Source of the DNA: a virus
Taxonomy: Duplodnaviria > Heunggongvirae > Uroviricota > Caudoviricetes
Length of the DNA: 26,300 bases
IMG/VR virus record: IMGVR_UViG_2693429677_000024
Direction: 5' to 3' (one strand)
The position numbers and the translations under genes were made by a program. Below, piece after piece: positions 1,977 to 3,831 of the stretch; positions within the stretch are counted from its first letter, which is position 1; every line of letters begins with the position of its first letter. Under the pieces are notes generated by a model. The model saw only the letters and a list, made by a program, of their open reading frames with translations. It was not told the origin of the DNA and did not search any database.

Positions 1977-2417
1977 ATGAACAAATCATTAACCGTTCTT
2001 CCTTCTGGCGAATACCCGACCATGAGCAGTCTTGAGATGGTGGATTACATTAATGCTGATCGGAAATCCAAAGCGGAGGCGGAGGGGCTTTCGTTCCCCT
2101 GTAAGAAATATCGCAAACTCGAACACCGCAGTTTCATGAAGAAAGTACCCAAGGTCCTCGGGGATGCAGCTGCAAAATTTTTTGCAACTGATACCTATAT
2201 CAACGGAACAGGTGGTGTTGTGGAGAGGGATATTTGCAATTTTCCCAAGCGTGAAGCTTGCCTCATGGCAATGAGCTACAGCTATGAGCTTCAGGCGCAG
2301 GTGTATGACCACATGACTGAGCTTGAGGGTGGGAAGGAGATTAACCTTCTCGATTTCTCTGGCCTGACCGATATGGCAATCAGCGAAATGCAAAACCGTG
2401 TCGCGGCTGCTGAGTAG
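1977..2417 (+). CDS. Rha-family phage regulatory protein (N-terminal domain ORF, 146 aa) ending at an in-frame amber codon
   Basis: AAGGA at 1963-1967 precedes ATG 1977. The pattern SSLEMVDYIN ... KLEHRSFMKKV ... FATDTYINGTGG ... ACLMAMSYSYELQAQVYDHMTELE fits the conserved Rha-family layout as I remember it. Family assignment is from recall, not a search. Confidence 0.5.
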   Translation: MNKSLTVLPSGEYPTMSSLEMVDYINADRKSKAEAEGLSFPCKKYRKLEHRSFMKKVPKVLGDAAAKFFATDTYINGTGGVVERDICNFPKREACLMAMSYSYELQAQVYDHMTELEGGKEINLLDFSGLTDMAISEMQNRVAAAE

Positions 2418-2456
2418 TTCTCATTTGAAATGCACGGTCAAGCAGGTAGCGCTCTC

Positions 2457-2573
2457 ATGACTCGTCGGAAGAAAGAGAAGAAGGCCATTAAAAAGGCTGA
2501 GCAGCTTGTGAAGGATCTTATTCAGTTCAAGCTATGTGACATGGGGGACTTCCCTGATGGTAAACCAGCATGA
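2457..2573 (+). CDS. Small basic ORF (38 aa; 47 aa if started at ATG 2430), in the same frame as the Rha ORF
   Basis: MTRRKKEKKAIKKAEQLVKDLIQFKLCDMGDFPDGKPA. Its stop overlaps the next ORF's start (ATGA). Separated from the Rha ORF by a single TAG and 13 sense codons. Below the track's size cut-off. Confidence 0.25.
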   Translation: MTRRKKEKKAIKKAEQLVKDLIQFKLCDMGDFPDGKPA

Positions 2574-3039: not shown

Positions 3040-3300
3040 AGATATTGAATTTATTGAGAATGAACCAGAGCGCCTGCGGGTCCTTTCCGGCGATCCGGCA
3101 GGCTACGGGGCGGCGACCTCGCGGGTTTTCGCTATTTATGAGTTTTTTTGAGGTGGTGGTTGTTGTTTTATCGTTTGATATATCTACTTGATAAGTAATA
3201 AGAAAGAAAAACAAACACAACAACCTGATGAGCTTTCTTATACGAAAAAGCATGTAAAATCAGAGGGTTTTACAAAAAGCGGGGTTGTTGTATTGCTTTT
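3040..3300. other. cos: cos packaging site: cosQ-like sequence, cosN (12-nt cohesive end GGGCGGCGACCT at 3108-3119), cosB
   Basis: 3081-3140 reads GGGTCCTTTCCGGCGATCCGGCAGGCTACG|GGGCGGCGACCTCGCGGGTTTTCGCTATTTATGA, which matches the lambda right-end/left-end junction as I recall it. The sequence from about 3141 to the terminase gene differs from lambda. Confidence 0.85.
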
Positions 3301-3324
3301 TTGCCGGTGGTTTATGGAGGAGCT

Positions 3325-3802
3325 GTGGCCTTTTTATTGAATAAAAGCGACATGGCCTCCTCCATCGGTATCTCAGTACAGGCATTTGATAAATGGGGTG
3401 TCCCTCCTGTTGAGCGCCGGGGGAGAGAGGTTTTCTATGACGTTAAAACTGTACTGGAGATAGATCGCGAGCGACGTCAGCAAAACCAGAAATCTTCAGA
3501 TGGTGAAAATAACCTTGAGGAAAGGCTACTTCAGGCCAGGGTTAATCTGACGGAAGAACAGGCTATTGCTCAGCGGTTAAAAAACCAGGTTGCAGAGCAT
3601 AAAGTGATTGATACCGCTTTCTCTGTTTTTGCACTGTCCCGGTTATCCGGAGAACTGGCATCTGTTCTGGACAGTATTCCGCTTTCGATGCAAAGAAAAT
3701 TCCCTGAGTTGACAGGCAGACAATTGGCTTATCTGAAAGAGCTTGTTGCGAAGGGAGCTAATAAATGCGTTGAATCTGCTGAAAAAATGAAGGAATTTGC
3801 GG

Positions 3803-3831
<29 letters not shown>
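3325..3831 (+). CDS. nu1: Terminase small subunit (Nu1-like)
   Basis: Homologous to lambda Nu1 over the central and C-terminal region (DTAFSVFALSRLSGELASVLDSIPLSMQRKFPEL). N-terminal DNA-binding region and extreme C-terminus differ from lambda. Start is ambiguous: GTG 3325 after GGAGGA at 3316-3321 is my choice; TTG 3301 and ATG 3352 are alternatives. Confidence 0.85.

Follow-up and report, generated by a model that had tools for sequence, protein, structure and literature searches.

Does the reading frame opened by the ATG at position 1977 encode a complete phage protein, and if its internal amber codon cuts the product short, is that codon an accident or a functional element? The window (the whole 26,300-nt stretch of DNA that was analysed) carries at this position a frame whose first stop is TAG 2415-2417. 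The frame then continues through 51 sense codons, reading FSFEMHGQAGSALMTRRKKEKKAIKKAEQLVKDLIQFKLCDMGDFPDGKPA, to TGA 2571-2573, a stop that overlaps ATG 2570-2572 of a 67-codon ORF as ATGA. The initial annotation had described this locus as a Rha-like frame with a single amber codon, 51 further codons and a TGA overlapping the next ATG, and every coordinate was confirmed. It had suggested a recent nonsense mutation, a product made only in amber-suppressor hosts, or deliberate low-level read-through giving two isoforms. We find that a dispensable accessory gene of the prophage has very probably lost its function here, through a recent polar nonsense mutation caused by a single A-to-T change. 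The elements of the locus are as follows.

1977-2417, + strand: Rha-like phage regulator gene, present as a truncated allele with 146 of 198 codons, from the ORF list and from the PGAP intact CDS with the same start
2415-2417, + strand: amber codon TAG, assigned by alignment with relatives to an A-to-T transversion at 2415 in an ancestral AAG (Lys147)
2418-2573, + strand: orphaned 3' end of the Rha-like gene (51 codons plus TGA), from DNA identity and the conserved tail
2570-2773, + strand: 67-aa ORF, function unassigned (phrog_4439), its ATG overlapping the TGA of the upstream gene as ATGA

The start codon at 1977 is preceded by AAGGAAA, with an anti-Shine-Dalgarno pairing energy of -5.6 kcal/mol (median of the window background: -2.8 kcal/mol). 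The open run after the stop is, taken alone, weak evidence for a disrupted gene: base composition gives a 10% expectation for a run of 51 codons, and across the six frames of the window 13% of the intervals between stops reach at least this length. It is homology that decides, and the run is judged to be beyond chance because it matches an intact gene and has a conserved tail. An antisense ORF of 134 aa with a TTG start (1989-2393, - strand) lies fully within the Rha-like gene and is most likely a shadow ORF.

The origin of the TAG can be addressed by consideration of the closest relatives. The gene is present in 17 of 5426 complete E. coli genomes, five of which were fetched and aligned with the window. 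All five carry AAG (Lys) at the position of the TAG, which is the sense codon the initial annotation had proposed to look for in related prophages. In the nearest relative, 2015C-4136CT1, the A/T exchange at 2415 is the sole difference across 821 aligned nt, and the DNA of the 51-codon tail is 100% identical to the 3' end of the intact 597-nt gene. A 71-nt probe centred on the TAG gave no perfect match in the 17 gene-bearing complete E. coli genomes (28 places), with one mismatch in 16 records and two in one record. Four of the five fetched relatives have the intact copy annotated by PGAP as a single 597-nt CDS of 198 aa and, where the 67-aa ORF is called, it follows this CDS with a 4-nt overlap.

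Being a single-base difference from the nearest complete genome, the TAG could also stem from an error in sequencing or assembly, with A as the actual base at 2415. Over 5417 nt, the window matches the E. coli contig CYBT01000028.1 (GCA_001277775.1) at 100% identity, and the same 597 nt including the TAG are found in JOQR01000048.1 (GCA_000714185.1) and in the Logan assembly of run ERR134532. Furthermore, position 2415 lies outside any homopolymer run, and an artefact is thus exceedingly improbable. The exact 146-aa product is deposited under two NCBI accessions (CTS76624.1 and CTU33602.1). An engineered amber mutation was considered as well and rejected, the sources being ordinary isolate assemblies. 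Three assemblies that were retrieved independently (two from NCBI, one from Logan) carry the allele in identical form, which identifies the TAG as a real, inherited nonsense allele rather than a read error or a conserved recoding site, although the assemblies that share it may represent a single clone. The allele is placed as very young because the orphaned 3' part is otherwise unchanged. One disabling change separates the window gene from its intact orthologues and the rest of the frame remains alignable, which is how a pseudogene or nonsense allele is recognised by sequence. This is a known kind of event, here in an already annotated gene family.

In public assemblies, the orphaned tail has been called as separate 47-aa and 38-aa 'uncharacterised proteins' (2430-2573 and 2457-2573; e.g. 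CTS76654.1 and KEL44848.1). These calls are annotation artefacts of disrupted gene copies.

A wider view was obtained by searching with the repaired 198-aa sequence, which returned 2108 proteins at E ≤ 1e-3. The best 120 of these 2108 are mostly 190-207 aa in length with ~100% query coverage, and come from Escherichia, Citrobacter, Klebsiella, Salmonella, Pantoea, Serratia and Xenorhabdus, as well as Edwardsiella, Yersinia, Providencia, Morganella, Arsenophonus and others. The initial annotation had held that its reading would fall if all homologues ended with the 146-aa ORF and did not resemble the downstream frame. Instead, position 147 is occupied by a sense residue in every one of the 57 aligned homologues (Lys in 46, Ser in 5, Arg in 3, Gln in 1 and Asn in 1), with no stop, gap or protein end at this residue in any of the 57, and at least 40 of the 51 tail columns are filled in 56 of them. 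Together with the AAG of the E. coli relatives, the conserved and alignable tail bears out the recent nonsense mutation that had been proposed.

Few parts of the protein are as well conserved as the tail, which contains a basic RRKKEKKAIKK stretch, has a DFPDG end and supplies the remainder of a long conserved helix. In the 57 aligned homologues, S149 and L160 do not vary, and E146, H153, G154, G157, S158, R164, E167, I171, A174, E175, V178, Q183, D188, G190 and F192 are at least 90% conserved. A comparison to Erwinia phage Midgardsormr38, the only isolated phage recovered by tblastn of the tail alone, shows 32 of 153 nt to differ and only 5 of 51 aa (dN 0.07, with synonymous sites saturated). 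These substitution patterns indicate that the tail is under purifying selection.

An undamaged frame for 51 codons past the TAG, leading into a tail that is clearly functional in the family, is also what a programmed or regulated read-through site would display, with 146-aa and 198-aa isoforms made in a set ratio. A functional recoding site should be conserved as a stop, and none of the 57 homologues has one here, nor is the TAG context matched exactly in any of the 17 complete E. coli genomes; the intact tail is explained by recency, the nearest copy being one base apart in 821 nt. The base following the TAG is T, and UAG-U is an efficient termination context in E. coli, so that only trace read-through is expected. 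An Rfam scan of the whole window found no known RNA family. Hence, regulated read-through with two isoforms is extremely unlikely, and the idea is abandoned here because the stop is conserved in no relative.

A full-length protein whose synthesis depends on hosts or conditions with an amber suppressor tRNA is also very unlikely. Amber is the class of stop most often suppressed. Suppressor alleles are nonetheless uncommon in natural E. coli, a tRNA gene scan of the 26.3-kb window returned none, and the relatives give no hint of such a system beside the gene. The suppressor-only product that had been put forward is not favoured as a result. The preferred reading thus remains a young nonsense allele, and the question becomes what kind of protein it truncates.

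Assignment to the Rha family could only be made remotely. Neither the 146-aa product nor the 198-aa read-through protein has a Pfam or NCBIfam match at E ≤ 1, and the same scan of the 51-aa tail and the 67-aa ORF gave only an insignificant RMF match (E 0.054) for the 67-aa ORF. The PHROG matches comprise phrog_26415 (6.7e-45, over the N-terminal 60 residues) and, more loosely, phrog_4936 'transcriptional regulator' (5.6e-11) and phrog_63 'anti-repressor Ant' (5.8e-11). It was found that 28 of 58 close homologues match PF09669 Phage_pRha at E ≤ 0.01 (best 5e-6). The two homologues scored individually against this family, P0023 (26.5 bits) and Midgardsormr38 gp91 (20.4 bits), are both below its gathering threshold of 29.9 bits, and the window protein does not belong to PF09669 by score.

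These differences can be related to the architecture of the head. Residues 16-118 (approximately) form a putative N-terminal DNA-binding domain, the middle of which (residues about 46-90; window about 2112-2246) is mosaic, with two or three sequence variants placed between conserved flanks. The family members that match PF09669 carry a different variant of this middle segment from that of the window protein. PGAP names for the family alternate between 'hypothetical protein' and 'Rha family transcriptional regulator' because only some mosaic variants reach PF09669.

The AF2 model of an 89%-identical homologue (P0002) has pLDDT block means of 78-91 for residues 11-110 and 73 for residues 111-120. 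The head elements are ordered helix, helix, beta-hairpin, helix, helix, and are followed by a single long helix spanning residues 128-187 at moderate confidence (54-77). Foldseek against the BFVD predicted viral structures gave nine matches at E ≤ 1e-3 (range 1e-7 to 1e-3), including 'Bacteriophage regulatory protein, Rha family' (1.5e-4), 'Antirepressor protein KilAC domain' (2.4e-5) and 'KilA protein' (1.2e-4). The modelled head fold is therefore like that of recognised Rha/antirepressor proteins, in a comparison of predictions with predictions. Foldseek against the PDB returned no match at E ≤ 1e-3 and only weak matches of winged-helix type, and a family-alignment profile found nothing below E 0.2 among PDB sequences. 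An hhalign comparison of the family alignment with P22 Rha gave E 0.39, a weak test given its single-sequence target and low-diversity query (Neff about 2).

The gene lies between lysis and packaging genes, the late-operon position of Rha-type genes. Because predicted fold and gene position agree with such a relationship, despite the sub-threshold Pfam scores, we call the protein a remote Rha/antirepressor-like regulator. The 'Rha family' label given by the initial annotation thus holds only in this remote sense: the PF09669 matches of 28 of the 58 homologues, the fold and the position support it, while the window protein lacks a Pfam or NCBIfam match and the individually scored homologues stay below threshold.

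The gene position follows from the surrounding features of the window, which is the late region or arm of a lambda-like E. coli prophage.

637-843: class II holin
843-1340: lysozyme
1325-1774: Rz-type lysis protein
1805-1833, + strand: terminator-like hairpin and T-run between the Rz and Rha-like genes, a 9-pair stem with 6 G-C pairs (hairpin 1805-1825) followed by TTTTTTTT
3108-3119, + strand: exact lambda cosN 12-mer GGGCGGCGACCT (0 mismatches), between the 67-aa ORF and terS
3301-3831: Nu1-type small terminase terS

Beyond terS lie a GpA-type large terminase, a portal gene and a full set of head and tail genes, all open. About three chance matches to the cosN 12-mer are expected at two or fewer mismatches, a figure that does not apply to exact matches such as this one. 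Because cosN and the terminase genes follow, the Rha-like gene and its 67-aa neighbour form the final cargo of the late operon and occupy the right end of the chromosome as packaged. Expression of this pair from the late transcript would need antitermination or a promoter of its own, because the strong hairpin separates Rz from the Rha-like gene; a promoter scan around the Rha-like gene found sites no more numerous than in shuffled sequence. Downstream of the pair, more than 2500 E. coli genomes share a non-coding stretch of ~96 nt (2804-2899) at 90-100% identity, though the genes preceding it vary by prophage. It contains a hairpin (AAGCCCA...TGGGCTT) that lacks an Rfam match, and may belong to the cos/packaging region.

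In its normal state, the intact gene encodes a 198-aa, two-part regulator. This consists of a Rha/antirepressor-like putative DNA-binding head and a C-terminal helix that is long, conserved and partly basic, and the gene is probably coupled in translation, via the ATGA, to the 67-aa ORF. In the lineage of the window, an A-to-T transversion has converted the Lys147 codon AAG to amber TAG, about one third along the predicted helix 128-187. Ribosomes would halt at 2417 and release a 146-aa protein with a complete head and only the first third of the tail helix. Lost with the remaining two thirds would be the RRKKEKKAIKK stretch, the DFPDG end and the AEQLVKDLIQF segment, which is conserved. The long, conserved and solvent-exposed helix most likely mediates oligomerisation or partner binding, and for this reason the 146-aa product is probably inactive or altered. 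It could still bind DNA, the head domain being complete.

The truncation presumably extends to the neighbouring ORF. ATG 2570 has an anti-Shine-Dalgarno pairing energy of -3.1 kcal/mol against the background median of -2.8 kcal/mol, and the 4-nt overlap is annotated in the E. coli relatives, in Midgardsormr38 gp91/gp92 (72% DNA identity) and in E. coli cM8a. As the ATGA overlap is conserved and ATG 2570 lacks a Shine-Dalgarno sequence of its own, the arrangement suggests that the 67-aa ORF is probably translated by termination-reinitiation, coupled to the upstream gene. The coupling suggested by the initial annotation thus gains weight from the persistence of the overlap in distant relatives. 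Ribosomes released 153 nt upstream would fail to reach the ATGA junction, and the 67-aa ORF would probably be under-translated.

Two re-initiation candidates lie within the orphaned tail: ATG 2430, 13 nt after the TAG, and ATG 2457, which has an SD-like AGG (-5.8 kcal/mol). Re-initiation at either might, in principle, restore both a tail peptide and the coupling. In its fullest form this would make the locus a working split gene, with a 146-aa head working by itself (binding DNA as a monomer or with a dominant-negative effect, for example), a re-initiated 47- or 38-aa tail, and the 67-aa ORF kept coupled. Such an arrangement fits the observation that tail and small ORF form a separable module, also found behind a Bro-N head, and is nevertheless quite improbable. 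Loss of function by a polar nonsense change is retained as the interpretation in what follows.

Other disrupted copies of the gene were also encountered. E. coli STEC299 has a 5-nt insertion in the gene and is flagged as frameshifted by PGAP, transposase genes replace the 5' part of the gene in Shigella flexneri SFJ17B, and two short-read assemblies have 2-nt and 1-nt deletions that are possibly assembly errors. This pattern fits ordinary decay of an accessory prophage gene. Independent disruptions of the same gene could also indicate selected inactivation, in which knock-outs are favoured because the lysogen or phage pays a cost for the gene or for its coupled partner. A precedent for such a cost is available: the Rha of phi80 and P22, a late-operon product, is described as blocking phage growth in IHF-deficient hosts (PMC4936722, citing Mozola and Friedman 1985). 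The literature search otherwise yielded only general background on Rha.

Selection for inactivation is rather unlikely when the remaining evidence is considered. Of the 17 complete E. coli genomes (five inspected directly), STEC299 is the only one in which a disruption is flagged, the family is under strong purifying selection across genera, and the indels seen in contigs from short reads or metagenomes may be due to faulty assembly. The same pattern moreover arises when accessory genes of prophages decay neutrally. The disruptions are compatible with mild selection against the gene, an explanation we regard as having a small chance of being correct.

A modular nature of the locus is suggested by three complete genomes in which the small-ORF stretch occurs at 76-80% DNA identity behind a different gene. 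The matching stretch begins about 26 nt before the small-ORF ATG in cM8a and about 6 nt before it in the other two. In cM8a, the upstream gene encodes a product of 190 aa with a Bro-N head (gene and small ORF at 1458-2230 of the fetched cM8a segment). From these comparisons, an exchangeable head (Rha-like or Bro-N), the conserved helical tail and the coupled 67-aa ORF appear to form a recurring cassette. This cassette is uncharacterised and widespread in Enterobacterales prophages, as the last late-operon cargo before cos, and a natural amber allele that parts head from tail would offer a convenient starting point for studying it. For annotation purposes, the 146-aa, 47-aa and 38-aa ORFs of these assemblies should be joined into a single gene that is marked as containing an internal stop, and 'Rha family' should be taken as a remote, sub-threshold relationship. 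The significance of the allele beyond annotation is slight.

A comparison to the classical Rha proteins places the window gene in a familiar slot. The Rha genes of P22 (orf201, NP_059624.1) and phi80 are late-operon genes located between the lysis cassette and the terminase genes, and encode products of about 200 aa. P22 rha is found between the Rz/Rz1 genes and gene 3, which is equivalent to the position of the window gene. In contrast, P22 Rha has no detectable sequence similarity to the window family, and P22 is absent from the tblastn matches. The window head has an insertion of about 20 residues (AEAEGLSFPCKKYRK) relative to Rha, as judged by eye from the sequences rather than from an alignment, and its tail is unrelated to that of P22 Rha.

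The closest known counterparts are two E. coli prophage proteins of 198 aa, WP_021559711.1 ('hypothetical protein') and WP_160517898.1 ('Rha family transcriptional regulator'). Both represent the same gene, at 99.8% (1 of 597 nt differs) and 98.5% DNA identity respectively, with the same start and the same neighbours (Rz upstream and the overlapping 67-aa ORF downstream). They differ from the window in being full length, with AAG in place of TAG. Erwinia phage Midgardsormr38, the only isolated phage in the collection with a full-length homologue, encodes gp91 (YP_010667177.1, 'Rha family transcriptional regulator') at 77% amino acid identity over 100% of the query. Its gene occupies the same slot after the spanin genes and has a 4-nt overlap with the small ORF gp92, as in the window. 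In contrast, gp91 is 195 aa in length, carries a different mid-head variant (PF09669 at 8e-4) and is free of the stop codon.

The BRO-N protein WP_032188747.1 of E. coli cM8a has the tail in common with the window protein and a different head. The C-terminal ~110 residues are common to both (35% identity, E 2e-18), in a region that spans the TAG position and continues through to the ...DLGDFPDGESA end, while the head is Bro-N (PF02498, 33.5 bits, above the cut-off) and not Rha-like. The homologous small ORF then follows, again overlapping by 4 nt, and the slot after the lysis genes is also that of the window gene.
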